Shown: positions 5,706-56,229 of the stretch, one piece after another
Numbering within the stretch: the stretch's first letter is position 1
Layout: each line of letters begins with the position of its first letter
Assembly (NCBI GenBank): GCA_002784945.1
Contig: PFMD01000024.1
Location: 17,858 to 81,857 of the forward strand
Reading direction: 5' to 3'
Origin: Candidatus Kerfeldbacteria bacterium CG_4_10_14_0_8_um_filter_42_10
GTDB lineage: Bacteria > Patescibacteriota > Patescibacteriia > UM-FILTER-42-10
Length of the DNA stretch: 64,000 bases
Program-made: the position numbers and the translations under genes
Notes under the pieces: generated by a model
What the model saw: the letters and a program-made list of their open reading frames with translations, nothing else
Databases searched by the model: none
What the model was told of the DNA's origin: nothing

Positions 5706-5749
5706 TCCCTCTGGTTATAAAAGGAATGAATTCTGGAAAATAATTATCG

Positions 5750-6502: not shown

Positions 6503-6605
6503 AAGTTACTTTTTAAGTGACTTCATTATAGCTGGTTTTAGGTAGAAATGAAAACCGCGGGAGAAATGGATGCCAATCTCTAATTACTAATATCTTCAGC
6601 CTAAG

Positions 6606-6627
6606 GCTGATCCGCCTTTGGCGGAAA
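6606..6627. repeat. Partial copy of the 28-nt palindromic repeat (GATCCGCCTTTGGCGGAAA)
   Basis: Matches the core of the in-frame repeats at 28011..28038 and 43355..43382. Confidence 0.5.
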
Positions 6628-6721
6628 TTTCTAATCAATTTCTAATGATTCAAATCCCAATGTCCAAAACCCTGCTGATTGTTTGATAATGAACAAGGAT
6701 AGTAAAATAAGCAAAAACAGC

Positions 6722-6885
6722 ATTGGGGTCTGGGGCGACTCTAAGCCAAAAAAAGAAACAGGAGTAGTAATTGGCGCCAAAGCGCATAGTCGCCCCAGCA
6801 GTCCCTTCGACTTCGCTCAGGACAAGTTTGGTTCTTTTGCTGCCAAAAGAACAAGAGCCCAATAGTGGGCAAAATAAAAAACACT
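6722..6885 (+). repeat. Structured ~165-bp repeat, copy A
   Basis: ~85-90% identical to reverse complement of 22930..23093 apart from a 24-nt indel; contains internal hairpins TGGGGCGACT...AGTCGCCCCA and GTTCTTTTG-CTGC-CAAAAGAAC. Confidence 0.75.
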
Positions 6886-6925
6886 TTGACGGCTGGGGAT
6901 TTATTATATTTTTCTCAAATTGTTT

Positions 6926-7957
6926 TTACGGCTGTAAAATGTCTTCGGTTTGCCCGTCGACGGAAATAACTACGCTTTCCACTGTAGGAAACTGTTTCAG
7001 AGTTTCCGTAATTTGGGATCGGATGAACGTTACTAGGCAGGCCCCGCCTACTTGAAATTGCAACTGATTGTTAAAATCCGCTTTCGCCACACCATTTTCA
7101 ATGGTCAGACTTTTAATTTCTACTCCCTGAGGTAAAGTAGTTTTAAACCCCTGCTCTTTTTCCGTTTCAGTCGGCCCTTTCAAAAGTTCGACCAAGGCCG
7201 CTCGCGCCACTGCGGGAGTTTTCCAAATCTTTCGCTCTACTGGAAAAACTTTACTGCAATCAACTGCCGGATTCTGTTGATTATTATCAAAATAGACCTG
7301 AATTTTAGTGGTCTCGGTTAAATCAAATTTAACGGGGATGATTAGCTGATCATTATTAGCTGTAAGACCAGAAGGATTGTTTTTTTCTAAAGTCAGCGTT
7401 CCTTGATCGGAGACCGGCACCGCAAATTCCAGCTGGGCGGTAAAAGGGACAAATTCTTCAGTCATCCAACCCTGTGGTGAGCCTGCCGAACCATTGGACT
7501 GTGCCTGGGCAATGGCAGTGCCTAATTCTTTGCCGTTTGCATCCGTAATTGTTATTGGAAAATCTCCTTCAAAAAACCAACTTCCTCTGGCTCTTCCGGA
7601 AATTTCTAAAGGACTGGCAACGGACGCATTAGGCCTGGGATTATCCACTTGGATTAGGTCGGTCTTTTCCAGCTCATTCCCGATATTCTTGGTGAAAGTG
7701 CGGCCGTCGGCTGTTCGGCATTGTTCCGGATAAATTTCCATTACTATATTCCCCGCGGCGACACAATCATCAAAATTGTCAATTACCGGCCCGCAACCGG
7801 TGGCAGGCATAGCCGCGGTGGGATTGCCGTGTTTGACCCACTGATTATTTTCGCAAAGCCAGTTATCTTCATCACCGCCAATGACAAATCTTAAAACGAA
7901 TACTGCCGCTAAGACAAAGACAATTACTAAAATAATGTTGCGAAGTTGTTTGGACAT
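6926..7957 (-). CDS. Secreted GerMN-domain protein
   Basis: 343 aa; N-terminal signal/TM; C-terminal LVELLKGPTE...GVAKADFNNQ...GGACLV resembles GerMN domain. Confidence 0.5.
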   Translation of the reverse strand: MSKQLRNIILVIVFVLAAVFVLRFVIGGDEDNWLCENNQWVKHGNPTAAMPATGCGPVIDNFDDCVAAGNIVMEIYPEQCRTADGRTFTKNIGNELEKTDLIQVDNPRPNASVASPLEISGRARGSWFFEGDFPITITDANGKELGTAIAQAQSNGSAGSPQGWMTEEFVPFTAQLEFAVPVSDQGTLTLEKNNPSGLTANNDQLIIPVKFDLTETTKIQVYFDNNQQNPAVDCSKVFPVERKIWKTPAVARAALVELLKGPTETEKEQGFKTTLPQGVEIKSLTIENGVAKADFNNQLQFQVGGACLVTFIRSQITETLKQFPTVESVVISVDGQTEDILQP

Positions 7958-7968
7958 AATGATTTTTG

Positions 7969-8385
7969 TTAATGATTAAAATATTTTATCAAGTATTGAT
8001 GGATGCTCGCGGGTAGAAGGCGCGATTTCGGAATCGCGCTTACGGCTAACCAAGTAATGGAGATGTGGCTTTCCTGGCATTTTATTTTCTCAGGATTCAC
8101 GGTTTTTAAAGTGACTTCGTATAACAAATTTATTTCGTGGTGATTTTCTCCGCGCCACTTAAAAAAATTTTCGAATGTTTCCATGAACCGAGAGGTTTTC
8201 ACTACTGCTCCAACTTCCTCCTTAATTTCTCTTTTTAGACATTCTTCCAATGTCTCGCCGTATTCCAAATGCCCCCCGGGCAAATAATGAATTGGCGGCT
8301 GATCGTTGGAAACGCATAATAAAATTTTATCGCTGTTTACGATAATCGCTCTTAAGATTATTTCGATATTTTTAACGGGTTTCAT
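7969..8385 (-). CDS. Nudix hydrolase (MutT-like)
   Basis: 138 aa; Nudix box GGHLEYGETLEECLKREIKEEVG. Confidence 0.75.
   Translation of the reverse strand: MKPVKNIEIILRAIIVNSDKILLCVSNDQPPIHYLPGGHLEYGETLEECLKREIKEEVGAVVKTSRFMETFENFFKWRGENHHEINLLYEVTLKTVNPEKIKCQESHISITWLAVSAIPKSRLLPASIHQYLIKYFNH
8016..8043. repeat. GC-rich hairpin motif GAAGGCGCGATT-TCGG-AATCGCGC, related to 44571..44598
   Basis: 24/28 nt match to the 28-nt perfect palindrome downstream of the clp gene; lies inside the 3' end of the Nudix CDS (encodes SAIPKSRLL). Confidence 0.45.
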
Positions 8386-8433
8386 TATTTACTTTTATTA
8401 CCGGCAACTAGTTGAATAACAATGTCAAAATTC

Positions 8434-9003
8434 TTATTTTTTCAACTCCTCTGAAAAATTTTTTTGAACCTTTTTAACCTTCGGCGCGATCACCACTTGG
8501 CAATAAGCTTGATTAGGATTTCTTTCAAAATAGCGATGATGATATTCCTCCGCTTCATAAAATTTTTCCAGTTTCTTAACTTCCGTCACGATCGGACTGG
8601 TATATTCCTTTTGGATCCGCCCGACATAATCTTTAATTGGACGCGCCTGATCCTCGTCAGAATAAAGGATAATCGAACGGTACTGGGTACCGACATCTCT
8701 GCCCTGCTTGTTCAAGCTGGTCGGATTGTGCATCTTAAAAAATATTTTCAGAATTTTTTCTAAAGATACAATACTAGGATCGTAGTCGAGCTTAACCACT
8801 TCCGCATGGCCGGTATTTCCTTGGCAAACTTCCTCGTAAGTAGGATTTTCTTTTTCCCCTCCGGCATAACCAGGCAGAACGGTTTTAATTCCATTCATCA
8901 TTAAAAAAACCGCTTCGGTACACCAAAAGCAGCCTCCGCCCAGAATGATTGTTTTAAGATTATTTTTCATCTTCAACAAACTCCATGGAAATGGAATTAA
9001 CAC
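8434..9003 (-). CDS. msrA: Peptide methionine sulfoxide reductase MsrA
   Basis: 189 aa; [12 protein letters not shown] and [12 protein letters not shown] motifs. Confidence 0.9.
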
Positions 9004-9325
9004 AGTGACGGGTATTTTTTTCGGTCATTTTCTCCCCTTCAAACACATGCCCTAAATGAGCGCCGCAGTTAACGCATTGGATTTCAATCCGCCGGCCATC
9101 GGGATCAGGCTGTCTTTTAACCGCGCCGGGAATTTCGGCATCAAAGCTGGGCCAGCCGCAACGGGCGTCGAATTTATCATCGGAGCGGTAAAGTTCGGCC
9201 CCGCAGCGCTTGCAGACATAGGTCCCTTTTTCAAAATGCTGATCATATTTTCCGCTGTAAGGCGCTTCGGTTCCTTTATGCACAATCACCGCTTCTTCTT
9301 CAGGAGTCAGTTTTTTTTCAGGCAT
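8960..9325 (-). CDS. msrB: Peptide methionine sulfoxide reductase MsrB
   Basis: 121 aa; CGWPSF, two CxxC pairs, [17 protein letters not shown]; overlaps msrA by 44 nt. Confidence 0.9.
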
Positions 9326-9386
9326 TTTTTAGGATTAAGTTTAATGAATTCTGCTGAGATTGTTGTAATGCAGTTTCTGTAACTTA

Positions 9387-9884
9387 TTAATAATCGTACC
9401 AATCCACCGGATCAATTCTGGTAATGTGCTCGCGGGTTTTCACTTCAACCTTTATTGGATTATGCGAAGGACATTCGTATAACATTCCGCAGGTAACAAA
9501 CTTAGAATAATACGCTTTGTCTTCATTGGTGTACCCAATTTTTTCCCTTCCCTCTTCTACCAAATGGCTAAAAATATAGTAGTCTCCCGGAGGAACATTC
9601 AGTTTGTAGCCTAAGCCATAAGTATAATCATTACTTTCTATCATTTCATAAGTACAGTATAAATCTTCCTTTTCGGTGGTCTCGGCGCAAACGCCCATTG
9701 CCGGTATCGCTTCGCTGGGATAGCTCAAAGAGCCAGAGATAGTTCCCCAATGGGCTCTAGAATCAGGCGGATCGACTTGATATGTTACAGCCGGCACCCT
9801 TTTCAATATTAATGATCCCGCACCGACAACCACAATAAGTAAAAAGATTAAGAGAACGATTACTAATATAAATTTCTTTTTCAT
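9387..9884 (-). CDS. Hypothetical secreted protein
   Basis: 165 aa with N-terminal signal/TM helix. Confidence 0.4.
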   Translation of the reverse strand: MKKKFILVIVLLIFLLIVVVGAGSLILKRVPAVTYQVDPPDSRAHWGTISGSLSYPSEAIPAMGVCAETTEKEDLYCTYEMIESNDYTYGLGYKLNVPPGDYYIFSHLVEEGREKIGYTNEDKAYYSKFVTCGMLYECPSHNPIKVEVKTREHITRIDPVDWYDY

Positions 9885-9891
9885 TTTTTTA

Positions 9892-11250
9892 TTAGCTTAT
9901 GCGAATATAAGACCAGCCCCTAATAAATTCTCTAACGGTGGTCAGCTCTTTTTTATAAGGGTCTAAAACCTTAGCGTCAAGCAAACGGGAATCAATACTT
10001 TGAAGATTATTAGGAGGAATGCCAGGGTTGTCTTCAGTTCCCCCCGATAGTTTTTTAAGCTCTTTGACGATTTCCTCCCATTCCAGATTAGAAATTCCGG
10101 CAGGACGAATCATTAAAGAGGTGTGGTTGAGAAAATTGCCGTATTTCTCTCCGGTAATTGAAAGCATGGCCTCGTGTTTTTGTCCGGGGAGATCGGGATC
10201 ATCGCCCAAACTTAAATGTTGGGATAGATTGCGTTCTAACCATTGCATAGAATCGCCGCACCGGCCGTATTCATTGACATCGACAAAATCGGCGCTGTTC
10301 CCGTCAAAGCCGTGGTCCAAAACGGCCACCACGTGCTGCCACCAAAACTGAGGATGCCAGATTCTGGTCTCGGTTCTGATGTTTTTAATTTGGCCATTGA
10401 ACCATTCCTTCATCTTCTCGCCATCTAAAAGTTTGTCTATCTCTGATTCGGTATAGCGGTACCCCAATCTTTGGCGAATTTTTTCCACTTCTTCGCGGCG
10501 GTCAAACCTTTCTTTAGAGACCAGACTACCGGAAGCGGGATCAAAAGTATAAGTGGTTTCAATATTGCCCTCTACCGAGATAGTTTGGGTAAGAAGCCCA
10601 TTATCATCTTGGACGTCAATTTGGCAATTGCATTCTGGATAATCTCCTTCCGCTGTAATCACTTGGGCATTCTTTTTGCCGCGTAAAAACTTGCTACATT
10701 GATCTTGGCAAGTTAAACCAGTGGCTCCTAAAGTAGATAAGGAAGTATTAGCGTTACTTACCGAAGTGTTAATATTAACATTTTTATTCTGATTTCGGTT
10801 AGCATTACTGTTTAGGGATACATTTGTATTATTATTATTCTTTGGCGCATTTACATTAGAATTTTGTTGAGATTGCTCATTGGGACAAAGTTCATCAAGA
10901 TTGACACAAGCATAGACGCAACCCGGGCAAGCGTCATAATCCGCCGGACGATAACATTCCTTATTAGGATCGGATAAATCTTCAAATTCACTGCCTGAAG
11001 AACCGCAAACGCATTGGCTAGTATAAGACCAGTGAGCATTAGCAACATCATTGCAGTCTGATTGAACACATCCTACGCCGCTCATGGGCTGCCATTCATA
11101 GCCGCTTTGGCAATCTTCTGGCCCTCTGGCTTCGGATCTTACCGGTAGCAAAAGAAAAATTCCCAAAAAAATGCTTATTAATAAAATTCTTTTGTAAAAC
11201 ATAGACTCTATCTTATTGATTAGTAATTGATTACTTTTTCTTTGCTTCAT
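9892..11250 (-). CDS. Secreted Cys-rich protein with Asn/Ser low-complexity linker
   Basis: 452 aa; signal peptide, Cys-rich N-terminal module, NxN/NTS low-complexity tract, globular C-terminal domain. Confidence 0.5.
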   Translation of the reverse strand: MKQRKSNQLLINKIESMFYKRILLISIFLGIFLLLPVRSEARGPEDCQSGYEWQPMSGVGCVQSDCNDVANAHWSYTSQCVCGSSGSEFEDLSDPNKECYRPADYDACPGCVYACVNLDELCPNEQSQQNSNVNAPKNNNNTNVSLNSNANRNQNKNVNINTSVSNANTSLSTLGATGLTCQDQCSKFLRGKKNAQVITAEGDYPECNCQIDVQDDNGLLTQTISVEGNIETTYTFDPASGSLVSKERFDRREEVEKIRQRLGYRYTESEIDKLLDGEKMKEWFNGQIKNIRTETRIWHPQFWWQHVVAVLDHGFDGNSADFVDVNEYGRCGDSMQWLERNLSQHLSLGDDPDLPGQKHEAMLSITGEKYGNFLNHTSLMIRPAGISNLEWEEIVKELKKLSGGTEDNPGIPPNNLQSIDSRLLDAKVLDPYKKELTTVREFIRGWSYIRIS

Positions 11251-11515
11251 CCAAAGTCGCGGATTTCTTTTTTCTAAGATGTAATACTACAAAACAGGTG
11301 ACACAATAAACAACGGTTACTCCAGCCAGATACCAAGCCATTTTGGTCCAATCGGTGTAAAATCCCATTTCACCGTACTCCTCGCCGGTTATGGGATCAA
11401 TTTTATGATATTCCGTAATTGACCGGTTGTAAAAGCTAAGAAAAACCGTGGCAATAATTATTATCCATCCTGTGAAAATTAGGACAATTTTTTTCATATT
11501 AATTTCACCCTCCAA
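11231..11515 (-). CDS. Small membrane protein (2 TM)
   Basis: 94 aa, two hydrophobic helices; overlaps neighbouring genes by a few nt in operon-like fashion. Confidence 0.4.
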   Translation of the reverse strand: MEGEINMKKIVLIFTGWIIIIATVFLSFYNRSITEYHKIDPITGEEYGEMGFYTDWTKMAWYLAGVTVVYCVTCFVVLHLRKKKSATLDEAKKK

Positions 11516-12146
11516 AATCCTTTAATTCCATGCTAGGATCTTCTAACAGCTCAATCTGATCATCTTGCACCATAATCGCCTGCTGGTCCGTAAGCAATTT
11601 AGCCGGATATTTCGCCGCCTGTATTTTTGGCTGGATAATCTGCTCTTCTTCTCGCTTATAATGAGCCAAGATTAAAAAGGGAACCAGATTCATTGCGGTA
11701 AAATCGGTGACTCCGTGACGGTTAAACTTTTTGGGATTCCTCCAAGTGGCCGTCTCAATGGTCGGGCAGGCTACGTAAGCGCCGGCGCTGGAGCCGCAGT
11801 ATACTCCCCCTCTTTCCAGAAATTCTTTCAGCACTTGTTCAAACCCGCTCTCTCGAATACATTTAAGCAGAAAATAGGAATTGCCGCCCAGCATATTGAT
11901 AGCATCCTTGTCTTTCAAAATTTCCCGCAACTCATTGGGGTTTTTTCCTTCGATATCAATATCCTCAAAGTCCCATCCCAATTTCCGCATACGAGTGACA
12001 TGTTTTTGAATATAAGCCGTGTCAGGCACGCTTTTTCCGGCAGTGGTAATATAAGCCCATTTGATTTGATCGCGGGGCTTATCAAAAATTTCGTATTTCC
12101 CGTCAGTAATGTAGGTGCCGCGGGAAGCGAGAAGAAGTTTTTTCAT
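11505..12146 (-). CDS. Peptidase S51 family (dipeptidase E-like)
   Basis: 213 aa; GGNSYFLL and GSSAGA nucleophile-elbow motifs typical of PepE/cyanophycinase family. Confidence 0.7.
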   Translation of the reverse strand: MKKLLLASRGTYITDGKYEIFDKPRDQIKWAYITTAGKSVPDTAYIQKHVTRMRKLGWDFEDIDIEGKNPNELREILKDKDAINMLGGNSYFLLKCIRESGFEQVLKEFLERGGVYCGSSAGAYVACPTIETATWRNPKKFNRHGVTDFTAMNLVPFLILAHYKREEEQIIQPKIQAAKYPAKLLTDQQAIMVQDDQIELLEDPSMELKDFGG

Positions 12147-12176
12147 TGTTTATCGGAATTTATTTATTATCGTTTG

Positions 12177-12746
12177 TCATCTGATGTTTGCCTCCACCAG
12201 TTTTTCTATTTTTCTTAAAATATCCAGCACCTGGTCGCTTAGTAGTGCCGGAATAAACTTCTTCTTATCCTTTTTAGAAGGATTAAAGATTTTTTCCAGC
12301 GGCCAGAATTCCAAGCTGGTGGCTTTGCCTTTCTCAATCTTCAGATCATTTAATTCCCCGTTGTATTCAAAAGCATACACTACCCTAATTACATTATTGG
12401 TCATGTTAGTAACTTGATCATAACTTTTTTGGCGCATTTTAGTTATAAAAACCAAATCAGACGGGTTTGCCTTGATTCCGGTTTCCTCCTTAAGTTCCTT
12501 CACCGCCGTTTTAAGATAATCATCCCCTATTTCCACATGCCCGCCGGTGGAAGCATCCAGCAGACCAGGATAAGTATCTTTATCTCTTGCCCGCTTTTGC
12601 AAAAGAACCCCTTTTTTCCGATTGAAAACCCAAATATGAATTTCGCGATGAAGCAATCCATTTTGATGGATGTTTTCTCTGGTATCCTGACCAATCACCT
12701 GATCATTTTTATCAATAATATTCAGTTTTCGTTTTAATTCGGACAT
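12177..12746 (-). CDS. Nudix hydrolase
   Basis: 189 aa; Nudix box GGHVEIGDDYLKTAVKELKEETG. Confidence 0.8.
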   Translation of the reverse strand: MSELKRKLNIIDKNDQVIGQDTRENIHQNGLLHREIHIWVFNRKKGVLLQKRARDKDTYPGLLDASTGGHVEIGDDYLKTAVKELKEETGIKANPSDLVFITKMRQKSYDQVTNMTNNVIRVVYAFEYNGELNDLKIEKGKATSLEFWPLEKIFNPSKKDKKKFIPALLSDQVLDILRKIEKLVEANIR

Positions 12747-12839
12747 TCTAATTTTGAATTATGTATGTTTTGGAATGGCTGTAAACCTAAAGGTTTTTGC
12801 TACATCTTCTACATCCTACGATTTTCTACCTACTACCTA

Positions 12840-12875
12840 CAAGCTACAAGCTAAAAAGCTACAAGCTAATTCAAA
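12840..12875. repeat. A/T-rich AAGCTA repeat family member (CTACAAGCTACAAGCTAAAAAGCTACAAGCTAA)
   Basis: Shares AGCTAAAAAGCTA(A/C)(G/A)AGCTA core with 29186..29258 and 37425..37500. Confidence 0.5.
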
Positions 12876-15771
12876 CCGCCCGCTCTTCGCAAATCTCCCG
12901 AAAATCGCAAGCGGCGCATTTATAAACAGACGGCGTGGCGGTAAAATCGCCTGTCCTGATTTCTTCAATGTTTTTCTTGATTTTAACCTTTAGCTTTCCG
13001 ACATCCTCCTCATTGGCGGTAAAGGAATATTTTTCGTTGCCGTCGATATAGTAAAAGCTTAACAGCGCCGCTTCTTTTTTAAACACCTCTTTCATGGCCA
13101 AATAGTAAATTAACAGCTGATTATGGTCGATTTGTGATTTCACTTTTGGTTTTTTGCCCGTTTTGTAATCAATAATCTCTACCGTTTCTTGGCCCATTCG
13201 ATCCACACGGTCAATGAATCCGCGCACGGAGTATTCTCCCACTTTTATATTAAACCCTTTTTCCAGGAATTCCGGCGGCCGGAAATTTTTATGATTCTTT
13301 TCGTAAAATTCCTCCAGCATTATTTGGCCCGCTTTTTTCCTTTCCTGCTCGTGCTGTTTGGTATCATACCAATCGTCAATCCAATTGTCTTCGTACAGTT
13401 TGAGCAAATCGGCTTTCGCTGGTTTTTCCCCTTGCTGAATTAAAGTGTAAAAAGCGCGCAGGGTATTATGAACGGATGAACCAAAGCTGTAGGTGTGCCT
13501 GCCGGCCAATACCGGTATTTTCCAAATAAACATGTATTTGTATTGCTTAGGGCAGGTTTCAAAAGCTTTGAACTGGGAAAAACTGAATCTTTCCGGCAAA
13601 GGATATTGGATTTTTTCTTTCTTAGCGGATTTTTTCTGGACAATGTCGAATCCTAAATTCAACTGTTCTACTGGTTTTTCTTTCTCTTCTTTCTTTACTT
13701 TTATTTCGTACAGGAATCGGGAGGGTTTCTTTTTGGTTTTGCCGCCCACATCCAAGGCGGAGGTGAAATAGAGCCCCTCTTTGGCCCGAGTGCAGGCCAC
13801 ATAGAATAATCTTCTTTCTTCTTGCAAATGGACATCTCCTTCAGGCAGGATTTCTTTAATCAAACTATTAGGAACTTCTATTTGCTCTTTTCGTTCAATG
13901 CTGGGAAAGCGCTTATCCACCATATTGGCAATAAATACCTGGGAAAATTCCAACCCCTTGGCGCCGTGAACCGTCATAATCTTCACGCTCTCCGGGCCTT
14001 CTTCTGCTTGGGCCGGGGCCGGATCTTCCCCGATATCAATAATTAACCCCAGCTCGGCCATAAAGTTTTTAACCGTCGGCTCGCTGTGGCTTTTTTCGAA
14101 TTCCTGGATTTTTCTAAAAAACTTGCTGATATTTTGGATTTTCTTGTGGTAATCAGGATCATCCTTGCTGCTCAGTTTTTTCAGATAACCGATCGACTTC
14201 AAAAATTCATAAGCCACTTGCCCCACCGATTTTTCTTTGGCCATTTGGGTCTGCTTTTTGATTAAATCCAAAATAAAGCGGATAACTTCTTTGGTTTTAG
14301 GCTGAATATAGTAAACTTGGTCGATTTGTTCCAATGTCTCGTAGATTGAACAACGTTTACGGTTAGTAAAGTTTAAAATACGAATCAAATCGCGCATATC
14401 AATGTTAAAAGCATCCATCGATAATACCCGAAACAGGCTCGGGCTCTCATGGTAGTTGTCGAGCATCCTGAGCCAGGCAATAACGTCTAGAATCTCCGGC
14501 TGTTGGTAAAGCCCTCGAGCCGCCACGTACTGATAAGGCACTTCTTGATTGATAAACGTTTTTACGAAAATGTCCGCCTGGTTGTTGGCTCGCACTAAAA
14601 TAGCGAAGTCATTCCAGGTCAGTTTCGGATTCTGCCTTTTCAACTTCAGAATTTCCCGCAGAACATCCAGCACTTCATCTTCTTCGGTTTCTGATTCAAT
14701 GTGCTTGATCACCGCTTCGCCTTTTTGCCAGGCTAAAAGCTTTTTGCTGACTCTTTTTATTTTAGGAGCCTTGGCGCCGGTCTTCTTGAGCTGATATTCT
14801 AATCGATTGGGATTGTTTAGTTGGATAAACTGATAGGCTAAATCCAGAATATTCTGCCGAGAGCGGTAGTTTTTAACCAGAATCACCTCCTTGGATTTGG
14901 GAAAATCCTTTTTGAACTCCAAAATATTGCTCATGGAGGCGCCCCGAAAGCGGTAAATGGCCTGATCGTCATCTCCCACCACGGTGAGATTATTTTTAGG
15001 ATAAGCCAAAAGTTTCAGCAATTCGTACTGGGCATGGTTAGTATCTTGGAATTCATCCACCAGAATATATTTGAACTGTTTTCTGAATTTTTCCAAAACC
15101 GTTTTTCTTTTTTGAAACAACTCCAAGGTACGAATAATTAAATCGCCGAAATCAAAGTAGCCGTTTTGATTCAGAAGATCTTGGTATTTTTTATAAGCTT
15201 TAGCGGCTTCTAAAGTCTTTTCGGCCTCTTCTTGTTGATCAGGCTTTAGATTTTTTTTCTTGGTTAAAGATTGGGCGTACTTTAAGTATTCTTCCGGTGA
15301 AATGTTTTCATCCTTTACGCGGGAAAAATGCTGGATCAAGGCTTGGATAAAGCGGGTGGGATTGCCGAGCGGCTTATAATAATTTAATTCAAACTGGTCG
15401 AGATTTTGCTGGATCAAAAGCCATTGTTCCGCCCGAGACAGAATTTGGAATCCGGAATCAAGGCCGATTTCTAAAGCGTAATCCCTTAGAATCCGCTCGC
15501 CAAAGGAATGGAAAGTAGAAACCCATAAATCCACGTAGCCGTAAGGCAATAATTGATCAACTCTTTCTTCCATTTCGCCAGCCGCTTTTTCGGTAAAGGT
15601 AAGGGCCAGGATTTCATCGGGATTCGCTTTTTTCTGCTCAATCAGCCAAGCCAGCCTTTGAGTAATCACGGTAGTCTTTCCCGTACCGGCACCGGCCACA
15701 ATTAAAAGCGGCCCTTCACCATGAGTAACCGCTTTTTTTTGCTCTAGATTAAGCGTTTTGAGGAATTCCAT
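12871..15771 (-). CDS. UvrD/PcrA-family helicase fused to C-terminal PD-(D/E)XK (Cas4/AddB-like) nuclease domain
   Basis: 966 aa; Walker A GAGTGKTT, UvrD helicase motifs (TFH, VDEFQDTN, YRFRGA), C-terminal CPKQYKY...IDYKTGK...CAACDFREIC nuclease/Fe-S cysteine pattern. Confidence 0.85.
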   Translation of the reverse strand: MEFLKTLNLEQKKAVTHGEGPLLIVAGAGTGKTTVITQRLAWLIEQKKANPDEILALTFTEKAAGEMEERVDQLLPYGYVDLWVSTFHSFGERILRDYALEIGLDSGFQILSRAEQWLLIQQNLDQFELNYYKPLGNPTRFIQALIQHFSRVKDENISPEEYLKYAQSLTKKKNLKPDQQEEAEKTLEAAKAYKKYQDLLNQNGYFDFGDLIIRTLELFQKRKTVLEKFRKQFKYILVDEFQDTNHAQYELLKLLAYPKNNLTVVGDDDQAIYRFRGASMSNILEFKKDFPKSKEVILVKNYRSRQNILDLAYQFIQLNNPNRLEYQLKKTGAKAPKIKRVSKKLLAWQKGEAVIKHIESETEEDEVLDVLREILKLKRQNPKLTWNDFAILVRANNQADIFVKTFINQEVPYQYVAARGLYQQPEILDVIAWLRMLDNYHESPSLFRVLSMDAFNIDMRDLIRILNFTNRKRCSIYETLEQIDQVYYIQPKTKEVIRFILDLIKKQTQMAKEKSVGQVAYEFLKSIGYLKKLSSKDDPDYHKKIQNISKFFRKIQEFEKSHSEPTVKNFMAELGLIIDIGEDPAPAQAEEGPESVKIMTVHGAKGLEFSQVFIANMVDKRFPSIERKEQIEVPNSLIKEILPEGDVHLQEERRLFYVACTRAKEGLYFTSALDVGGKTKKKPSRFLYEIKVKKEEKEKPVEQLNLGFDIVQKKSAKKEKIQYPLPERFSFSQFKAFETCPKQYKYMFIWKIPVLAGRHTYSFGSSVHNTLRAFYTLIQQGEKPAKADLLKLYEDNWIDDWYDTKQHEQERKKAGQIMLEEFYEKNHKNFRPPEFLEKGFNIKVGEYSVRGFIDRVDRMGQETVEIIDYKTGKKPKVKSQIDHNQLLIYYLAMKEVFKKEAALLSFYYIDGNEKYSFTANEEDVGKLKVKIKKNIEEIRTGDFTATPSVYKCAACDFREICEERAV

Positions 15772-15858
15772 GAGGTAATTTTAGCACAAAAAGTTCAATG
15801 ATAAAAAGAAATGAAAAAGCAGTCTCGTTTCAAGACTGCTCTGGAAAGTACGGCTGAA

Positions 15859-16464
15859 TCATCGGTTCCGGTCAAACCATCGCTTGATCAGAAGTCCTGC
15901 CTTCTTCTTGACTACGTAGAGTTTTACCTTCTTCTTCAAAATACCTTTCTCTCCAGGCGTCCAATCCATCAAAAATACCGGCAAGACCACGTCTTCTGAC
16001 ACTTCCAAGTGAGCGGTTACTACTTCGTCTGCACGCATAGTAGCCAGAAGCATATCAGAAAGAGAAACTTCCAGCTTGTGCGCTTTGCCGCAATGAATTC
16101 CGTGCGCGATCATCAGAACCGTAGTGCCCTTTTTGAGTTGATGGAATGCCTCTGTCAAATCCCATTTCAACACGACCTGAGCAGCATGAAGGTATTCTTT
16201 GGTCGCAGCGTCAAAACCGCTGTTAGGATCAAGACCCAGAAGAAAACCGCCCCCATTGAGCTTTAGTAAATGTTGCCGCGGATTCACCTCTTTCAGCTTC
16301 ATTTCTAGAAGCAGGGAATAATCGCCATCAGCGCACATGCAGCCGATAATTCCGCCTCGGGCCAGTTCGCGGATTCGCTCATGTTTCATCAGCTGCAATC
16401 CGCCTTCCCGAATGAGCCAATTGACAAACTCCAGTGAATCTTGGATTTCTTGTGATTCAGTCAC
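15859..16464 (-). CDS. Hypothetical protein (no recognisable family)
   Basis: 201 aa; conserved-looking Cys/His patches (GCMCADGD, IAHGIHCGKAH); locally GC-richer than neighbours. Confidence 0.4.
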   Translation of the reverse strand: MTESQEIQDSLEFVNWLIREGGLQLMKHERIRELARGGIIGCMCADGDYSLLLEMKLKEVNPRQHLLKLNGGGFLLGLDPNSGFDAATKEYLHAAQVVLKWDLTEAFHQLKKGTTVLMIAHGIHCGKAHKLEVSLSDMLLATMRADEVVTAHLEVSEDVVLPVFLMDWTPGEKGILKKKVKLYVVKKKAGLLIKRWFDRNR

Positions 16465-16598
16465 AGATTCCCCCTCTGGTTAAGGTTAAAGAACAATGCA
16501 TTTTACCCATCCTAGACCAAAGTTGATTTTAAATCAAGATTGAAAAAACCGGGCTTTTGGAGCCCGGCTTTTCGCGAGGAGGATTGTACTTAGTATTA

Positions 16599-19500
16599 TT
16601 AATTTATGAATTTAGTAAGTACTCCTCCTCTGAACGTTTCATCATAAGCCATGAACCAGTTGCTTACGACAAGCTCGTCATTTTCCACGTTGATTATTCT
16701 GACATTCGGGCCGCCGCCACTTAACGGAGTAACGACCAAGGATGATGTTCCGTCACCATTCAGATCCGCTACTCGAACCGTCATTTCACCGCGGAAATCA
16801 GCGGCATAGGCATAGGTCCAATCAAGGAGGGTCAGCTGGCCTGCGGCATCGTATTCGTAAATCCGCAGATTCGGGCCGCCGTTCTGCAGCGGATAAACCA
16901 CCACCTCCCGATAGGCATCACCGTCTAAATTGGATACTTCTAATCCGACTCCTCCCCTGAAATCATCGGCAAATACCATGGCCCAATCTTTCAGGTCAAA
17001 ATCTTCCGTAGCAGAGTTGTAACTGTAAACTCTTAGGTTAGGACCGCCGTTGGTAGCCGGAGCAACGATTATTTCCGCCTGATCGTCTTTATCTAAATCA
17101 AATACCTTTACTTCCATCAAACCGCGGTAATCATCACTGAAAGGCTGAATCCAATTAATCAGTTCAAAGGCTCCGGTTTCGGAATTATAGCTATAAGCCC
17201 TGATGTTTGCTCCGCCGGCTTCTTCTGGGTAAGTGATAATATCTTTCTGGCCGTCCCCATTAACATCACCAGTAGCAACTAAAACTCCTCCTTGGAATTC
17301 CTCTTGATAAGCCATAAACCAATCGTCCAGTTCTAAAGTACCGTGTATCGAATCATAGTGGAATACTCTGATATTAGGGCCTCCGTCAAGCGGTGAAGTA
17401 ATAACATCCACATTTCCATCACCAGTAACGTCAGCGGTGGCCACGGCAATCTCGCCTTGATATTCCTCTTGATAAGCCATAGTCCAGGCTAACAAATCAA
17501 TCGTACCGGTTTGGGAGTTGTACTTATAAGCGCGCAAGTTCGGGCCGCCGTTTCCTCGCGGCACCACTACCATGTCCTGTTTTCCATCACCGTCCAGATC
17601 AACATTGTTCACCACTTCAATCCCACCGCGGTATCCTTCGTTTAAGACCAGTTCTTGGGCCAGCAAAGTTCCGTCTTTAGCAAAGATTCTTATTTGCGGA
17701 CCGTATCCTTCGCCGTATGGCCAGGCAATAATCTCCATTTCATCATCACCGTTAACGTCGGCGGTCAGAATTCTGAATTCGCCGCGATAGGCTTCAGAGA
17801 AAGCAAAGAACTGGCTTTGTAATTCTCCTTCGGAGTTGAACACCCGAATATGGGGTGAGGAATTTTCGTTGGTAGTGACCGCAATGTCGTATGCAATGCC
17901 GGTTACGGAATCAAGCGGGGTTTCCCCTTCCGGCGAATAAATTATCGTTCGGCTGACCGTATCGGCAGTAAGCAAACCTTTCACGGCGCCTACCAGGATA
18001 GTGTTTTCTCCTTCTAACAGCCCGGCAACATTTTTAGAGAAGCTGCCGGAAGAATCCACCGTAACTTCACCGCTACTTACCCCGTTCAGCCTGACAGTCA
18101 CGATAGCGGCATTATCACTGACCGTACCGGATACCAACACCGAATCAGTAGAAACTGCCGTTCCCTCAGTTGGCGCGGTAACGCCCAACTCTAAATTTTC
18201 TGCATCCGCTGCTCTACCAGGAGTGATGGTACTGAAGGTACTGAAATGATCGGTTTGAATGTTAATTACGTTGTTGTCTTCGTCCACAATCACGCTGGCC
18301 GCACCTTCCCAAATGCCAGAAGTGCTATCAAAATATTCACCGCTCAAATCGCTTTCTAATAATCCCAGGTCTTGAAGCGCTTCTTCAGAATAAGGAATGG
18401 TCAGCGTTACGTTAGAATTAAAGCTTTGAATGGTCGAGCCGTCGTCGCCGCGGACCGTTATTTCATAACCGTACCCCTGCAAAGGCTGGGCGCCGGCCTG
18501 ATAAGCCATTTTAGCGGTAGGTTTAACCGTCAACGTTACGTTACCCTCGGTAGCGAAGGCCCGGGCCGGAGCCTGAATGGCAAAGCCGTCTTCTAATTCT
18601 AAACTGAACGATTGAGTGGAATCAAAGGTAGAGTTGGTTGATTCCGGCATTTCCCCTTGATATTCCAGTTCCAGATCTTGAGTTTTAGTGGCGGCATCAA
18701 CTACCACATCTTTCTGTTCACTAATATAGTAGGAAGTGCCGCTTTCATGAACTGCGCCAATCCGCCAGGTTTCACCTCTAGTCACGGCAATAGTGTAATC
18801 GCCATCGCTGGTAGTTGCTTCGGAATATCCGCCATTGCTGGTGTAAGCATAAATAAATGCTTGATTGTTTTCTGCTTCCAGTGTTACTTGACCGGTAATT
18901 TGAGCGTCGGCCGAGGCAAAAATTACTTCTATATTTTCCGCCGGATCATTGGGGCTGGTATAAACTAACTGCGCTCCGGTAAAGATGTAGCCTAAAGATG
19001 GTGGTAAAGAAGCATGCAGATAATACTCGCCTTCCGGAGCCATTAAGGAAAATACCCCGTTAGCATCCGAGACTGCTTCTAAGGAATCAAATCCGTAGCT
19101 GCTGTAATTATCGTCTCTTTGTTGACCAGCATAGTCCAAAGAAGCATAAACGTGAGCGCCTTCAATTTCATTTCCTTCTTCATCATGAACTACGCCGGAA
19201 ATCGCTGAATCAGCGGCCAGAACGGTAAAATCAAGCGTGATTGTTTCATCTTCTTCTACTGTAACTTTCTTTGATTCCAGGCTAGAGGGCAGATACCCCG
19301 CCCCCGACCAAGGATCAAGCCAATAATCTAAATTCCAGGTGCCCGCGGCAACTTTCAGGGAATAGGTACCATCAGGATTTATCTGACTAAAGGTATTGCC
19401 GCCTTCCGCGCGATCTCCGAAAATTTCTCCCCATAAGCCATAGACGGTGTTACCGTCGGCATCTTTGAATTTGCCCTGAATTTTGGAATTCGTGGGAATC

Positions 19501-22100
19501 ATGGTAATCACCACATCGTCTTTGGTTTGGCCGGATTCAATGTTTACGGAAACCTCGGAATTCTGAATATAATCAGAGTTCCAGTCCATAAAGGCATTCA
19601 GTTCATATTTACCCGCCGGAACATCAAGCGAAAACTGTCCGCTTTCCAACGGCGCTCCTAAAAAGCCGCCGTACCACATGTCGCCTTCTTGAAAATCATC
19701 TCGAGAATTTGAGGCATTAACCCAGCCCCAGCTATTGATTAAATCGCCATCGGCCGTTTCTAAATGCCCCTTGATCGTGGCATCGGCAATTCCCATTTGA
19801 AAATTAACATCGCTAACGGTTCGATTGGCTTGAATAGAAATTTCGGTCGGCGGAGTAATCGGAACGTAACTTGCTCCTTCATCTTCGGGAGAAGCGTTCC
19901 AACTGGGGAAAGCATTCACTTGATAAGTCCCCCCGAACACCAGCATATCGTACTCACCATCGGCATCGGTCATGGCCGAGCCCCAACCGCCGGCTGATTC
20001 GGACCAAGCGTTAAGATTAGCTCCTTCAATCGGCGTTCCATTGGTATCGGTCACCTTGCCGGTGATATGAGCATTCTTTTCTACCAGATTAAGTGTTCCC
20101 AAATCATAAGTTGAATCAGAAATCATCTTTACGGGAGCAATCGCCGGGCCGGCATATTCTTCGCCCTCGCCGGAATAACTCCAGGCCCACATGTTTATTT
20201 CATAGGTATGACCTCCGGCTAATTTCAAGGAGAAGTTGCCGCTACTGTCTACCTGCGCCCAGTTGCCGGTACGGCCGCCTTTCTCCCAAGCGTCAACGTT
20301 TGCCGAAATCATATTGCCCAAAGCGCTGCCGTCGGGCTTCACCAGTTTTCCCGTTAAGGTCGCATCGTATTCGACCACGGTAAAATTGACCGTGTTTGTT
20401 TCACTAATGGAATCGTCTTCGGTAAATTCAATGTACTGCTCAGCGGGAGCGCCCCAATCCGGCTCGCCGCCTGATCCCCAATCCGGCCAGACATTTATTC
20501 CGTAAGATCCTTTGCCAACCCACAGGGTGTATTGGCCTTGCGAATTAGTCTGATCCCAAGCGTATCCGCCATACATTCCCCCTAAGGCCCAGGTGTCGAT
20601 CCGGGCATCCGTTACCGGATTACCGTTGGGATAAGAAACCGTTCCCGTTATTTTCTTTCTGGCGGTGGCTAATTGAATGGGATGGGTATCATAATAAGTA
20701 CTGGTCTGGCCGGCAGTTAATTGGACGCTAAGCGTTTCCGAGGGCAGTAAACCTTCTTGATCAAAGGGAGGGTTAACCTTGACGTAATAAGTTCCGGTGG
20801 CAAAACTTTTATTAACCGTAAATTCGCCATCGGCGTTAGTCTGACCCCAATAACTGTTTTGCCAGCTATAAGAGGAATCGTGCACATCCACTTGCGCGTT
20901 AGTTACCGGACTGCCGGATTCCGTTACCACTTTTCCTTTCATAATTGCCGGCGAAAGATAAAGCGTTCCTACATTAATATTTGATCCAGAATAATTAATG
21001 GTTTGGGTAGCAGGGGCAGCATAATCAGGATAAGAATACTGATCAATCCAAAACTCCAGTTTGTAAGCGCCGTTAGTGGTAATCGCCAGACCGAACGTTC
21101 CATCTTCTGCCGTAGTTCCATACTTGTTAATTGTCCAGTTGTTATTATAAAAACTAAAAGAAGCGTTTGCCACCGGATCGCCGGAAGGCGTTAAAAGCGT
21201 TCCGGTAATATTATTATTCAGAAGATATAAATTACCAAGATTGTTGCTGATATTGGCATTAATCGCCGCCGTCGTAGGGTCCGGCGCAGAATAATTATCC
21301 CCCCAGTAATTCACATTAATATTATAAGTGGCGCTCTGACTGATATTTAAGGAGAAATAACCGTTCTCATCAGTGTTCGCCCAATAAGAATAAGTCCAAT
21401 TATTAGTATAGAGTGAGATGCTGCATTCGCTGGCACAAGGAGTCAGATCCGGTTTTAAAACATAACCAACGACATTCGGGGCTTTATAACTGGCGGCTAA
21501 AGTAACCATGCTGCCAGAATAAGTGAAGGTAATTGGATCAGGAGGAGATTCTCCTTCAAAATTGCCGTAAACCTCAATCGTATATATTCCATTACTCTCC
21601 AGACCGAAAGAAGCCACTCCTAAATTATTAGTAGATTCATATTTCCAAATAGTGTTGTTAGCATCATGCAAATTGACCCCAACGTAACCTGCCGGTGTTA
21701 CCTCGTCAGACATAGTAAGAGTCAGCAGAACGGAAGGTTCCACTAAAGCAACGGTTCCTAAATCATAAACCGGAGTACCTGGCAGATAAACCTGAATGGG
21801 ATCAGGATCTTTATAAGTAGCATGCCCTGCCCAGACTTGAACGGTATAATTGTCAGCGGGCAGATCATTAAAAGTAAAATCTCCGTTCTGATCGGTATAG
21901 GTTGATTGATAATAAGACCAGGTGGCATTTCTCACGTCTACTAAGGCATTAGTTACCGCCGTGGTTTCATCCGGTTCGGTAACAGTACCGGCAAGAGAAG
22001 GATTCTGGGCCGAAGCTTGATTAGGCGCAATGATTAGTAAGGCCAGTCCAAAGAAGAAGATTAATCCGCTATAATTTATAATTTTTTTAATATTGTTCAT
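16599..22100 (-). CDS. Giant secreted protein: N-terminal Ig-like/carboxypeptidase-regulatory-like repeats plus C-terminal FG-GAP beta-propeller
   Basis: 1833 aa; signal peptide; repeated ~90-aa beta-sandwich units; C-terminal third has many DxDGDG calcium-binding FG-GAP repeats (VADLNGDGTSSLVV, DLDGDGKQDMVV, GDVNGDGQKDIIT). Confidence 0.8.
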   Translation of the reverse strand: MNNIKKIINYSGLIFFFGLALLIIAPNQASAQNPSLAGTVTEPDETTAVTNALVDVRNATWSYYQSTYTDQNGDFTFNDLPADNYTVQVWAGHATYKDPDPIQVYLPGTPVYDLGTVALVEPSVLLTLTMSDEVTPAGYVGVNLHDANNTIWKYESTNNLGVASFGLESNGIYTIEVYGNFEGESPPDPITFTYSGSMVTLAASYKAPNVVGYVLKPDLTPCASECSISLYTNNWTYSYWANTDENGYFSLNISQSATYNINVNYWGDNYSAPDPTTAAINANISNNLGNLYLLNNNITGTLLTPSGDPVANASFSFYNNNWTINKYGTTAEDGTFGLAITTNGAYKLEFWIDQYSYPDYAAPATQTINYSGSNINVGTLYLSPAIMKGKVVTESGSPVTNAQVDVHDSSYSWQNSYWGQTNADGEFTVNKSFATGTYYVKVNPPFDQEGLLPSETLSVQLTAGQTSTYYDTHPIQLATARKKITGTVSYPNGNPVTDARIDTWALGGMYGGYAWDQTNSQGQYTLWVGKGSYGINVWPDWGSGGEPDWGAPAEQYIEFTEDDSISETNTVNFTVVEYDATLTGKLVKPDGSALGNMISANVDAWEKGGRTGNWAQVDSSGNFSLKLAGGHTYEINMWAWSYSGEGEEYAGPAIAPVKMISDSTYDLGTLNLVEKNAHITGKVTDTNGTPIEGANLNAWSESAGGWGSAMTDADGEYDMLVFGGTYQVNAFPSWNASPEDEGASYVPITPPTEISIQANRTVSDVNFQMGIADATIKGHLETADGDLINSWGWVNASNSRDDFQEGDMWYGGFLGAPLESGQFSLDVPAGKYELNAFMDWNSDYIQNSEVSVNIESGQTKDDVVITMIPTNSKIQGKFKDADGNTVYGLWGEIFGDRAEGGNTFSQINPDGTYSLKVAAGTWNLDYWLDPWSGAGYLPSSLESKKVTVEEDETITLDFTVLAADSAISGVVHDEEGNEIEGAHVYASLDYAGQQRDDNYSSYGFDSLEAVSDANGVFSLMAPEGEYYLHASLPPSLGYIFTGAQLVYTSPNDPAENIEVIFASADAQITGQVTLEAENNQAFIYAYTSNGGYSEATTSDGDYTIAVTRGETWRIGAVHESGTSYYISEQKDVVVDAATKTQDLELEYQGEMPESTNSTFDSTQSFSLELEDGFAIQAPARAFATEGNVTLTVKPTAKMAYQAGAQPLQGYGYEITVRGDDGSTIQSFNSNVTLTIPYSEEALQDLGLLESDLSGEYFDSTSGIWEGAASVIVDEDNNVINIQTDHFSTFSTITPGRAADAENLELGVTAPTEGTAVSTDSVLVSGTVSDNAAIVTVRLNGVSSGEVTVDSSGSFSKNVAGLLEGENTILVGAVKGLLTADTVSRTIIYSPEGETPLDSVTGIAYDIAVTTNENSSPHIRVFNSEGELQSQFFAFSEAYRGEFRILTADVNGDDEMEIIAWPYGEGYGPQIRIFAKDGTLLAQELVLNEGYRGGIEVVNNVDLDGDGKQDMVVVPRGNGGPNLRAYKYNSQTGTIDLLAWTMAYQEEYQGEIAVATADVTGDGNVDVITSPLDGGPNIRVFHYDSIHGTLELDDWFMAYQEEFQGGVLVATGDVNGDGQKDIITYPEEAGGANIRAYSYNSETGAFELINWIQPFSDDYRGLMEVKVFDLDKDDQAEIIVAPATNGGPNLRVYSYNSATEDFDLKDWAMVFADDFRGGVGLEVSNLDGDAYREVVVYPLQNGGPNLRIYEYDAAGQLTLLDWTYAYAADFRGEMTVRVADLNGDGTSSLVVTPLSGGGPNVRIINVENDELVVSNWFMAYDETFRGGVLTKFIN

Positions 22101-22311
22101 TTTTTTGATTTAATTATTAATTTTTGTTGATAAATAAAAACTGCCTAAAAAGGCAGATTTTTTAATCTTTAATTTTGTTTCGGTTTATGCCCCGCATAGA
22201 CTCGGCGTCTAGCCTAGGCTGGTAAATATGCCCTCCTAGCATATTTTTTGTGGTTATTTATTTTTATTTTCACCTTTATTATAGCGCAAAAAAGGGTTTT
22301 TGTCAACAAAT

Positions 22312-22385
22312 TCCGTTAGAAGCCCAACTTAGCTAGCTTTAATCAATCATAAGAGTTAACACTCTCTAAGGAACGAGCTTCTAGA
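22312..22385. mobile_element. MITE-like empty copy of the CCCGTTAGA terminal-inverted-repeat element
   Basis: TCCGTTAGAAGC at left end, GCTTCTAGACGGGA at right end; 74 bp. Confidence 0.5.
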
Positions 22386-22486
22386 CGGGATAAAAGAATT
22401 GACTAAAAAGCCCTCGGTGATAAGATTACTTACCGATCATTGGAAAAAATCTGCCGGATTTAACAGTCATGAGGGAGGTGATTTAA

Positions 22487-22849
22487 ATGATGGGAGCAAT
22501 GGAATACTCCGTAAGAATAACAGGGGGTATTCTACTAATTACCCTGAGGGGCTCTTTCGAAAAAAACGGAGAGGACTTATTTAAACTAATGATTAAGGAA
22601 AGCCCCTTACTGAGAGAAACGGGACTTAGGGCGATCAAACGAATGGCAGTTGATGTTACTCAAGTAAATTCTACGGATCTTTCCGGAATTTCTGTTTTGG
22701 TCGGGCTACGTGCTCTGGGAGATCAAGCGGGAATAAGTCAACAGCTCGCCGTCATTCTGGGCGACAATTCCAAGATGCGTAAATTGCTCGATCAGACTAA
22801 ACTCGCCACAATTTTTCAGTGCCTCACGTCCGTTGAAGAACTGAACTGA
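22487..22849 (+). CDS. STAS-domain protein (anti-sigma-factor antagonist-like)
   Basis: 120 aa; SpoIIAA-like pattern ...VDVTQVNSTDLSGISVLVGL...; GGGAGGTG RBS 8 nt upstream. Confidence 0.55.
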   Translation: MMGAMEYSVRITGGILLITLRGSFEKNGEDLFKLMIKESPLLRETGLRAIKRMAVDVTQVNSTDLSGISVLVGLRALGDQAGISQQLAVILGDNSKMRKLLDQTKLATIFQCLTSVEELN

Positions 22850-22879
22850 TTCGCCCCGAACAATCTGCGCCCTTTACTA

Positions 22880-22915
22880 AAAGCTGCGGTCACCCGATCA
22901 GCAGCTTTTTCATTT
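22880..22915 (+). terminator. Rho-independent terminator after STAS gene
   Basis: AAAGCTGC-ggtcacccgatca-GCAGCTTT followed by TTTC. Confidence 0.5.
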
Positions 22916-22929
22916 GGAAAGGTAGGGCC

Positions 22930-23093
22930 ATTAAAAATTTTCCATTTCTGACTATTTTTTGCCCCCAGGGCTCTTGTTCTTTTGACAGCAAAAGAACCAA
23001 AACTGCTGGGGCGACTAATGCGCTGTAGCGCCAATTGCCGTTCCTACTTCTTTTTTTGGCTTAGAGTCGCCCCAGACCCCAGCGTCCTTTGGG
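22930..23093 (-). repeat. Structured ~165-bp repeat, copy B (inverted relative to copy A)
   Basis: Reverse complement aligns to 6722..6885 at ~85-90% identity; same internal hairpins. Confidence 0.75.
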
Positions 23094-23382
23094 TTTATAT
23101 CTCTATGTTTACTCGACCATCAAGGGATCCGGCGAACATTGGAAAAATTTAACTAGAATTTGGAGTTAAGAAGGAACGTTCCCCGAAAGGAAAATTTAGC
23201 ACCGTTCAAACCCCACATAGGTGGGTGAGTTTGCTAAATTAGTGACGATGAATCCTAAATTCTCTAAATTTTTCCAGCGAGCCAGTTCTTAGCGCCACAT
23301 TTTGTCTAAAAAGGTGGCGAGGAAGTTTGGTTAAAAGTGGATTCTTCATCCTAAATAGCTTGCATAAAAAAACAACAATTGA

Positions 23383-23410
23383 TAGAATTATTTACTATCA
23401 AATAATTCTA
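23383..23410. promoter_or_regulatory. Palindromic operator-like site overlapping start codon of 23410 gene
   Basis: TAGAATTATTT-actatc-AAATAATTCTA, 11-bp perfect inverted repeat. Confidence 0.4.
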
Positions 23411-56214: not shown

Positions 56215-56229
56215 TATTCTTACAAAAAC

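Follow-up and report, generated by a model that had tools for sequence, protein, structure and literature searches.

A small, hairpin-forming family of intergenic elements in Candidatus Kerfeldbacteria, tentatively read as structured RNA genes

What is a structured repeat doing twice, in opposite orientations and 16 kb apart, in the genome of a bacterium of the Candidate Phyla Radiation (CPR/Patescibacteria)? We investigated this question in a 64-kb stretch of DNA (the window) from Candidatus Kerfeldbacteria bacterium CG_4_10_14_0_8_um_filter_42_10, together with homologs from related groundwater Kerfeldbacteria. A sequence-only reading of the window had offered three explanations: a miniature inverted-repeat transposable element (MITE), a small structured RNA gene present twice, or the inverted ends of an invertible or composite segment. 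We found that the repeat belongs to a previously undescribed family of small, hairpin-forming, intergenic elements. The best reading, to which we give a probability of about 0.45, would be a family of paralogous genes for small structured non-coding RNAs that is specific to Candidatus Kerfeldbacteria. This reading is favored by compensatory changes in two helices, by low copy number and by a promoter-like module ahead of the structured part. Of the three original explanations, the RNA gene thus fits best, given the compensatory changes across seven sequences, with the correction that it is present at least three times rather than twice.

The two inverted copies of ~165 bp are present 16 kb apart. 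Copy A has its core at 6724-6870 on the plus strand, and copy B at 22961-23081 on the minus strand. The cores are 91.7% identical over 120 aligned bases in a global alignment (110 matches, 10 mismatches); the sequence-only reading had given ~85-90%. Gaps in this alignment comprise one 24-nt indel (6803-6826, carried by A only of the pair) and a few indels of 1-3 nt. A 34-nt block at 6724-6757 (+) in A equals the reverse complement of 23048-23081 in B, and is 100% identical in the homolog from one relative (org2, introduced below); it spans a G-run, the 5' strand of the first helix and the conserved loop segment CTCTAAGCCAAAAAAAGAA. Similarity continues for ~130 nt 5' of the core, in the orientation that reads CTGGGGCGACT, giving a homologous unit of ~280-300 nt. 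The full unit of 5' module and structured core covers 6591-6888 (+) for A (nhmmer with the family hidden Markov model, E=8.5e-76, and alignments) and 22931-23212 (-) for B (nhmmer, E=1.4e-80). Both copies sit, as noted earlier, in long intergenic regions, of 423 nt (A) and 560 nt (B).

The core is organized around two hairpins that the sequence-only reading had already named, and both are present in A and B. The first, P1, is CTGGGGCGACT-N47/48-AGTCGCCCCAG (A 6730-6740/6788-6798, +; B 23065-23075/23006-23016, -), an 11-bp GC-rich helix around an A-rich loop of 47 nt in copy A. The second, P2, is an A/U-rich hairpin of 9-11 bp, GTTCTTTTG-CTGY-CAAAAGAAC (A 6831-6852, +, with a CTGC loop; B 22976-22997, -). 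Within the P1 loop, the opening 19 nt (CUCUAAGCCAAAAAAAGAA) are near-invariant in the family, and the patch of 12-13 nt that follows is distinct in each copy.

Are there further copies? The search for them revealed a third copy in the window and homologs in related Candidatus Kerfeldbacteria only, at unrelated loci. Copy C (5486-5725, +) is diverged (nhmmer E=4.5e-8); a covariance model built without it gives it 42.7 bits (E ~1e-8) and finds nothing in the window beyond the family copies A, B and C. Its P1 pairs TGGGGGCGGCA with TGCCGCCCCCA (5579-5589/5639-5649), and its P2, CTACTTTTTG...CAAAAAGTAG (5660-5702), has an extra 16-nt hairpin (5674-5689) within the loop. Copy C lies between an open reading frame (ORF) at 4850-5407 (-) and a PD-(D/E)XK gene at 5750-6502 (-). 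The latter separates C from A, which is in direct orientation with it. A tie between the element and this bracketed gene was rejected, as the neighbors of the other copies are unrelated to it. The region of C and A has consecutive locus tags in the NCBI record (COY66_02045, 02050 and 02055), so neither copy is annotated there.

The family sample consists of seven distinct sequences from four related organisms. In org2, a metagenome-derived Kerfeldbacteria relative (L003, L005 and other contigs), the copy lies between the tsaB stop codon and mraZ of the dcw cluster. In org3, Candidatus Kerfeldbacteria bacterium CG08_land_8_20_14_0_20_40_16 (CG08; L015-L021), it lies between a hypothetical gene and tRNA-Gln/dnaX. 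The fourth organism, org4 (L066-L071), is a relative with a 90%-identical AtpA and 70-84% nucleotide identity in flanking genes, and is syntenic with the window at 24-39 kb. Its copy, D, lies between a STAS gene and a carbonic-anhydrase gene and scored 66.3 bits with a covariance model from which C and D had been left out. Copy number is therefore low: three in the 64-kb window, one canonical copy in the CG08 genome and one per org2 sample.

How widely is the family distributed? A scan of the genome collection that demanded CTGGGGCGACT...AGTCGCCCCAG had zero matches, and a looser scan returned the CG08 Kerfeldbacteria genome, one chance terminator and none besides. The metagenome scan with the P1 arms yielded one true homolog, that of org2. 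The org3 homolog was reached via miscalled ORFs, by comparing the translated element with a protein database; using spurious ORFs over the element as an index to this database led only to the same three loci. Phage, plasmid and viral collections contained no true homolog of the repeat; of 72 pattern matches to viral contigs, the covariance model accepted none as family members.

The evidence that carries the RNA-gene reading is the conservation of structure across these sequences. On the model alignment of all seven, 97.6% of cells are in standard pairs, and P1 (11 pairs) and P2 (9 pairs) are 100% paired. Nine pairs have changed on both sides, four in P1 and five in P2. The arms of P2, for example, are GTTCTTTTG/CAAAAGAAC in A, B and the CG08 copy (L015), CTACTTTTTTG/CAAAAAAGTAG in the org2 copy (L005) and CTTCTTTTTG/CAAAAAGAAG in D. 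The covariation score is 0.367, versus 0.142 in shuffles, and none of 500 shuffles reaches either this score or the count of double changes. In a control in which the partner was slid by 1-3 columns, pairing falls to 43-58%. The test was also run in a six-sequence version. These compensatory changes in P1 and P2 point to selection on the structure. Substitutions between copies are located in loops; A, B, L005 and L015 have identical P1 stems and share the first segment of the loop unchanged. Hence we consider it scarcely credible that the copies are no more than inert duplications whose hairpins arose by chance. The family is not a known one, as that explanation would have it; against it, compensatory changes maintain P1 and P2 at an identity between copies of only ~60%, and one loop segment is identical across genomes with wholly unlike flanks.

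Other pairings are less constant. A mini-hairpin in the P1 loop of copy A, GCGC-N4-GCGC at 6774-6785, is without support across the seven sequences (85.7% paired, zero double changes), and long-range pairing of the region after a hairpin designated H0 with the variable loop patch is not above shuffles. Two further hairpins behave as modules. The 24-nt indel corresponds to a stretch of 24-26 nt, GTCC-cTTCGACTTCGCTCA-GGAC-aag at 6801-6826 (+), present in A and L015 and absent from B, C, D and L005. Because L015 has it too, it is a module that is carried or missing, not an insertion private to A. The third hairpin, P3, is GCCCA-ATAG-TGGGC at 6857-6870 (+) in A and lies at 22961-22971 (-) in B. 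Its sequence differs among A, B and L015, yet a GC hairpin is retained; L005, C and D lack it. A separate observation concerns TTCGACTTCGCTCAGGAC, within the 24-nt module, which recurs without mismatch 20 times in unrelated viral contigs, most of them high in GC (L030-L049). Often the match forms part of a longer hairpin's loop or is paired with an inverted copy. The string is a widespread mini-motif; it corresponds to no Rfam family, and no paper containing it was found.

A 5' module of ~85-130 nt precedes the core. Its sequence is conserved and its fold is not: it contains no conserved helix (alifold only -3.4 kcal/mol). In copy A (6636-6723, +) it includes the near-palindrome TTGTTTGATAATGAACAA and the promoter-like hexamers TTGTTT-18-TAAAAT (6679-6708). 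Such -35/-10-like hexamers, recognized by eye, occur at the matching place in A, B and C. Copy D has a TATAAT match, also by eye, 31 nt before P1, just past the terminator that follows the STAS gene upstream; the promoter scan of L066 does not list it.

Which strand would be transcribed? Most likely it is the one that reads CTGGGGCGACT, that is, plus for A and C and minus for B. On this strand, P1 departs from Watson-Crick pairing only by U-G in L015 and G-U in D, which become C-A/A-C mismatches on the other. Only on the CTGGGGCGACT strand can the G-run on the 5' side of P1 form a duplex with the U-run or UCCC on the 3' side; the duplex is stabler in five of six cases. The loops are A-rich on this strand. 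In the org2 copy, P2 followed by AUCUAUUUAUUU is called an intrinsic terminator on the proposed strand; it is the only copy whose P2 is so called. The called promoters of neighboring genes fall outside the element, so that its opposite strand lies between a terminator and a promoter. A replication-linked reading of the orientation bias was rejected, since GC skew merely tracks gene direction.

Several observations weigh against an RNA gene on this strand. In a strict sigma-70 scan, none of the copies has a promoter on the proposed strand, and L005 and L015 have poor -10-like hexamers. No U-run follows P2 or P3 on the proposed strand in A, B or L015. Four C-to-U changes in L015, in the mini-hairpin and in a GCCAA/UUGGC helix, keep pairing on the opposite strand only. 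The proposed strand is antisense to both neighbors in five of six contexts, with D the exception. The covariation, too, is real but shallow, because the sequences are few and related (four close organisms, one site type) and were aligned by fitting them to the model. Finally, turnover at a syntenic locus, a modular build and nested insertions, all described below, match a selfish repeat as well.

Some of these points would fit a different kind of RNA, namely a cis-acting element read in the direction of the flanking genes, with CTGGGGCGACT on the reverse complement, that works as a terminator or insulator or as a module of mRNA processing or stability between two genes. A, B, C and the org2 and org3 copies are co-directional with both neighbors on that strand, P3 there is called a terminator-like hairpin followed by a T-run, the L015 substitutions become G-U pairs, and fold z-scores are slightly better. 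We nevertheless find this explanation improbable. Copy D is inverted relative to its upstream STAS gene, and the STAS gene of the window has its own terminator before B, as read directly from the sequence. The U-G and G-U pairs of P1 would be mismatches. P3, the sole terminator-like part, is missing in three of the seven sequences; the loops are U-rich on the gene-sense strand, which has no space for a promoter between P3 and P2. Moreover, the neighboring genes are functionally unrelated.

Do the copies stay where they are? They occupy five unrelated intergenic contexts in four genomes, and even a syntenic locus has changed. In the window the order is STAS gene, terminator, B (-, subtype 1), a gene for a 219-aa membrane protein, and carbonic anhydrase. 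In org4 it is STAS gene, terminator, an inverted 5' module, D (+, subtype 2) and carbonic anhydrase, with no 219-aa gene. The element at this locus is thus polymorphic in position, as a mobile repeat would be. The 219-aa gene itself (23410-24069, compared with 594-867 of L066) is absent in the relative, so that gene, repeat subtype and orientation differ together. The org2 copy L005 is a mosaic, in which the distal module is B-like, the proximal one A-like and P2 C-like. Because of the unrelated loci, the differences at the STAS locus and this mosaic, we conclude that the elements turn over between intergenic sites.

This turnover brings in the main rival of the RNA gene, which we regard as possible though rather unlikely: a non-autonomous selfish structured repeat of the BOX, RUP, ERIC, Correia or MITE kind, which would spread or be exchanged among intergenic sites and whose hairpins act as DNA or single-stranded DNA, or only incidentally as RNA. 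It would account for the five contexts in four genomes, for a STAS locus that differs from that of a relative with ~75-80% nucleotide identity, and for the modular, mosaic build seen in L005, the optional 24-nt module and P3. Strand-specific insertion would also give the antisense placement in five of six contexts. In addition, mini-palindromes are nested inside: two in tandem, of 15 nt each (TCAGCC-TAA-GGCTGA and TCCGCC-TTT-GGCGGA), lie at 6596-6625 (+), ~100 nt from the core of copy A on its 5' side. They are the mini-element that also occurs within atpA and glyS (see below), and are probably a separate nested element rather than part of the repeat.

The usual marks of such a repeat were not seen. 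There are no terminal inverted repeats: the inverted repeats are internal helices only, and the element's two ends show no complementarity in A, B, L005 or L015. No target-site duplication was recognized, with the flanks not searched for direct repeats and the ends fuzzy, as they are set by the loss of homology. The ORFs of the 64 kb encode no transposase, integrase, recombinase, reverse transcriptase or RAYT. Copy number is very low, and phage, plasmid and viral collections hold no match. Selection beyond mobility alone is implied by the compensatory changes and by the invariance of 19 nt in the loop. The MITE of the sequence-only reading is compatible with the non-orthologous sites and with the other subtype and orientation found in a syntenic relative, but not with the ends, the lack of a transposase in the 64 kb or the copy number (one to three, not dozens).

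Comparison with known repeats gives a similar picture. BOX, RUP and SPRITE of Streptococcus, ERIC/IRU of enterobacteria and Correia/NEMIS of Neisseria resemble the Kerfeldbacteria element in being intergenic, 100-300 nt long and modular, with stable hairpins; their location also varies among related genomes, and they sometimes have terminator- or promoter-like parts. Families of the BOX, RUP, ERIC and Correia type have tens to hundreds of copies, and Correia, RUP and MITEs have terminal inverted repeats and target duplications. The Kerfeldbacteria element differs in its one to three copies, its lack of terminal inverted repeats and its invariant loop. The small-RNA and selfish-repeat readings are, moreover, compatible with each other.

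Could the element belong to a known class of RNA, gene or mobile element? In a search of the whole window with Rfam 15 (4227 covariance models) there were zero matches at the gathering threshold; around A and B at E<=10 there were only chance snoRNA and miRNA matches, far under threshold. ARAGORN found no tRNA or tmRNA in the window. Protein coding on either strand was rejected: frames are unconserved, B has a 1-nt indel with a frameshift and a stop, and L015 has no start codons. A hydrophobic peptide like a type I toxin (MLFLLILLSLFIIKQ...) was rejected because it is unconserved in B or L015. Template and variable repeats of a diversity-generating retroelement were dismissed, as the A/B mismatches are not adenine-specific and no reverse transcriptase is present. 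For an IS200/IS605-derived PATE or a REP/RAYT system, the end hairpins (H0 and P2/P3) are unrelated in sequence and the window has no Y1 transposase. An integron attC site does not fit either: read directly from the sequence, P1 is a perfect 11-bp stem without RYYYAAC...GTTRRRY core sites, and there is no integrase.

The remaining explanation is that A and B function as the inverted ends of a segment programmed to invert, or of a composite transposon, with the 16 kb between them as cargo. The gene content of this segment is as described earlier; Pfam finds a Gmad2/Germane secreted protein, NUDIX, MsrA, MsrB, an S51 peptidase, a UvrD-PD-(D/E)XK helicase-nuclease and an FG-GAP giant protein. The arms are inverted and share the identical 34-nt block, and one contig appears to join them. 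L065 (ENA ERZ27293414, 1533 nt) is 100% A on the Gmad2 side up to the 34-nt block and then 100% B for 141 nt, including B-specific flank. This switch is the A/B hybrid junction expected of an inverted isomer. However, L065 ends exactly 141 nt (the assembler's k) past the shared block and apparently comes from a low-coverage assembly; it is a lead rather than proof, as it may be a chimera. The reciprocal junction was not found among the contigs examined, and 15 contigs are colinear, across A in eight samples and across B in seven. In a separate observation, the three independent assemblies L010, L012 and L014 break at 23303-23307, in the loop of a CGCCAC...GTGGCG hairpin (region 23290-23320) ~90 nt outside B, which could reflect strain variation or an assembly effect.

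The arms and cargo do not favor a programmed inversion. A Pfam scan of all ORFs at 3.8-26 kb found no invertase or tyrosine recombinase, there is no insertion sequence in or beside the 16 kb, and the cargo consists of housekeeping genes. Solitary copies occur elsewhere in related genomes, and C is direct with A. A composite transposon was rejected, as the arms are ~290-nt non-coding units without transposase genes. Hin, Gin and Cin segments, shufflons and RecA-mediated inversions share with this locus the two inverted, near-identical arms and, here, the single contig with a recombinant junction; unlike invertible segments, the Kerfeldbacteria locus lacks a site-specific recombinase, its boundary has neither a promoter nor a gene that could be switched, and its arms come from a dispersed family. 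It is thus very unlikely that inversion is the purpose of the element; L065 does hint that the two inverted copies can recombine. The inverted arrangement of A and B looks incidental, as does the inversion, if real.

How might the element work if it encodes a small RNA? In the model that we propose, the unit would combine a 5' module acting as promoter and regulatory region with a structured part of ~130-150 nt that runs through P1, the optional 24-nt hairpin module, P2 and, in one subtype, P3. The element would be transcribed and would act in trans. Its invariant loop could be the surface to which a protein or a common partner binds, while specificity of each paralog could come from the variable patch. 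P3, a terminator on the opposite strand only, could shield the gene from incoming transcription. Copies turn over between intergenic sites, and the 34-nt shared block may permit occasional homologous inversion of the 16-kb segment.

Such an RNA would resemble the multicopy small RNA families Qrr1-5 of Vibrio, LhrC1-5 of Listeria and OmrA/B. Like these, the family has a few intergenic copies per genome, each with its own conserved upstream region, a conserved fold, an invariant single-stranded segment beside a copy-specific one, and a distribution limited to one lineage. Unlike these, it does not have a canonical promoter and U-tailed terminator in every copy, its sites are non-orthologous and its modules differ. 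A bolder version, which we think unlikely, would make the family a self-contained, mobile small-RNA gene cassette of CPR bacteria. Regulatory module and RNA would relocate together between terminator-proximal intergenic sites without a transposase of their own and diversify by the loop patch, and inverted copies would drive real inversions of tens of kilobases in Kerfeldbacteria populations in nature.

The analysis also turned up features that stand apart from the family. An identical 30-nt double mini-palindrome, TCCGCC-CAAG-GCGGA TCCGCC-TCT-GGCGGA, lies in frame in two essential genes, atpA (ATP synthase alpha; 28010-28039, +) and glyS (glycyl-tRNA synthetase; 43354-43383, -), and related hairpins are those at 6596-6625 and 5674-5689 (the P2 loop of copy C). 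It adds ~9-10 residues to each protein, where solved homologs show a gap. In this it resembles the Rickettsia palindromic elements, which are likewise in frame, here in a CPR genome. Elsewhere in the window, two adjacent giant ORFs (1677 and 2526 aa; 51181-63810, -) have common stretches that are ~74-76% identical at an offset of 5049-5064 nt, and look like tandem paralogs.

Similar observations come from the other sequences. In CG08, the stretch from the repeat to tRNA-Gln (L015, 2450-2650) is ~200 nt of further hairpin-rich non-coding DNA, with an AgrB score in Rfam of 25.8 bits, under the threshold of 40; the JGI annotation places one odd 415-nt 'gene' over the whole stretch. In org2, a 23S_rRNA_IVP gene (four-helix-bundle, Avd-like) follows the dcw genes (L024, 11898-12150), and such genes are often near diversity-generating retroelements. 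The IMG/VR contigs L074-L145 contain three recurrent, well-conserved phage units of 65-70 nt that a GGGGCGRC/GYCGCCCC stem closes; ACC or GCC comes after the stem, resembling an acceptor end (for example L089 582-651, -; L077 3849-3917, +; L076 3092-3156, -). They are not tRNAs by ARAGORN, are not in Rfam and, by the covariance model, are unrelated to the Kerfeldbacteria repeat.

What would the family mean for these organisms? CPR/Patescibacteria have tiny genomes and, to our knowledge, almost no regulatory RNAs have been described in them. If the RNA-gene reading is true, the family would be among the very few candidates for RNA-based regulation in uncultured CPR episymbionts, with a practical value that is modest for now. 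The family also occupies unusually long intergenic regions and would be a convenient marker of rearrangement in natural populations, as in the possible inversion of 16 kb and the turnover at the syntenic locus.

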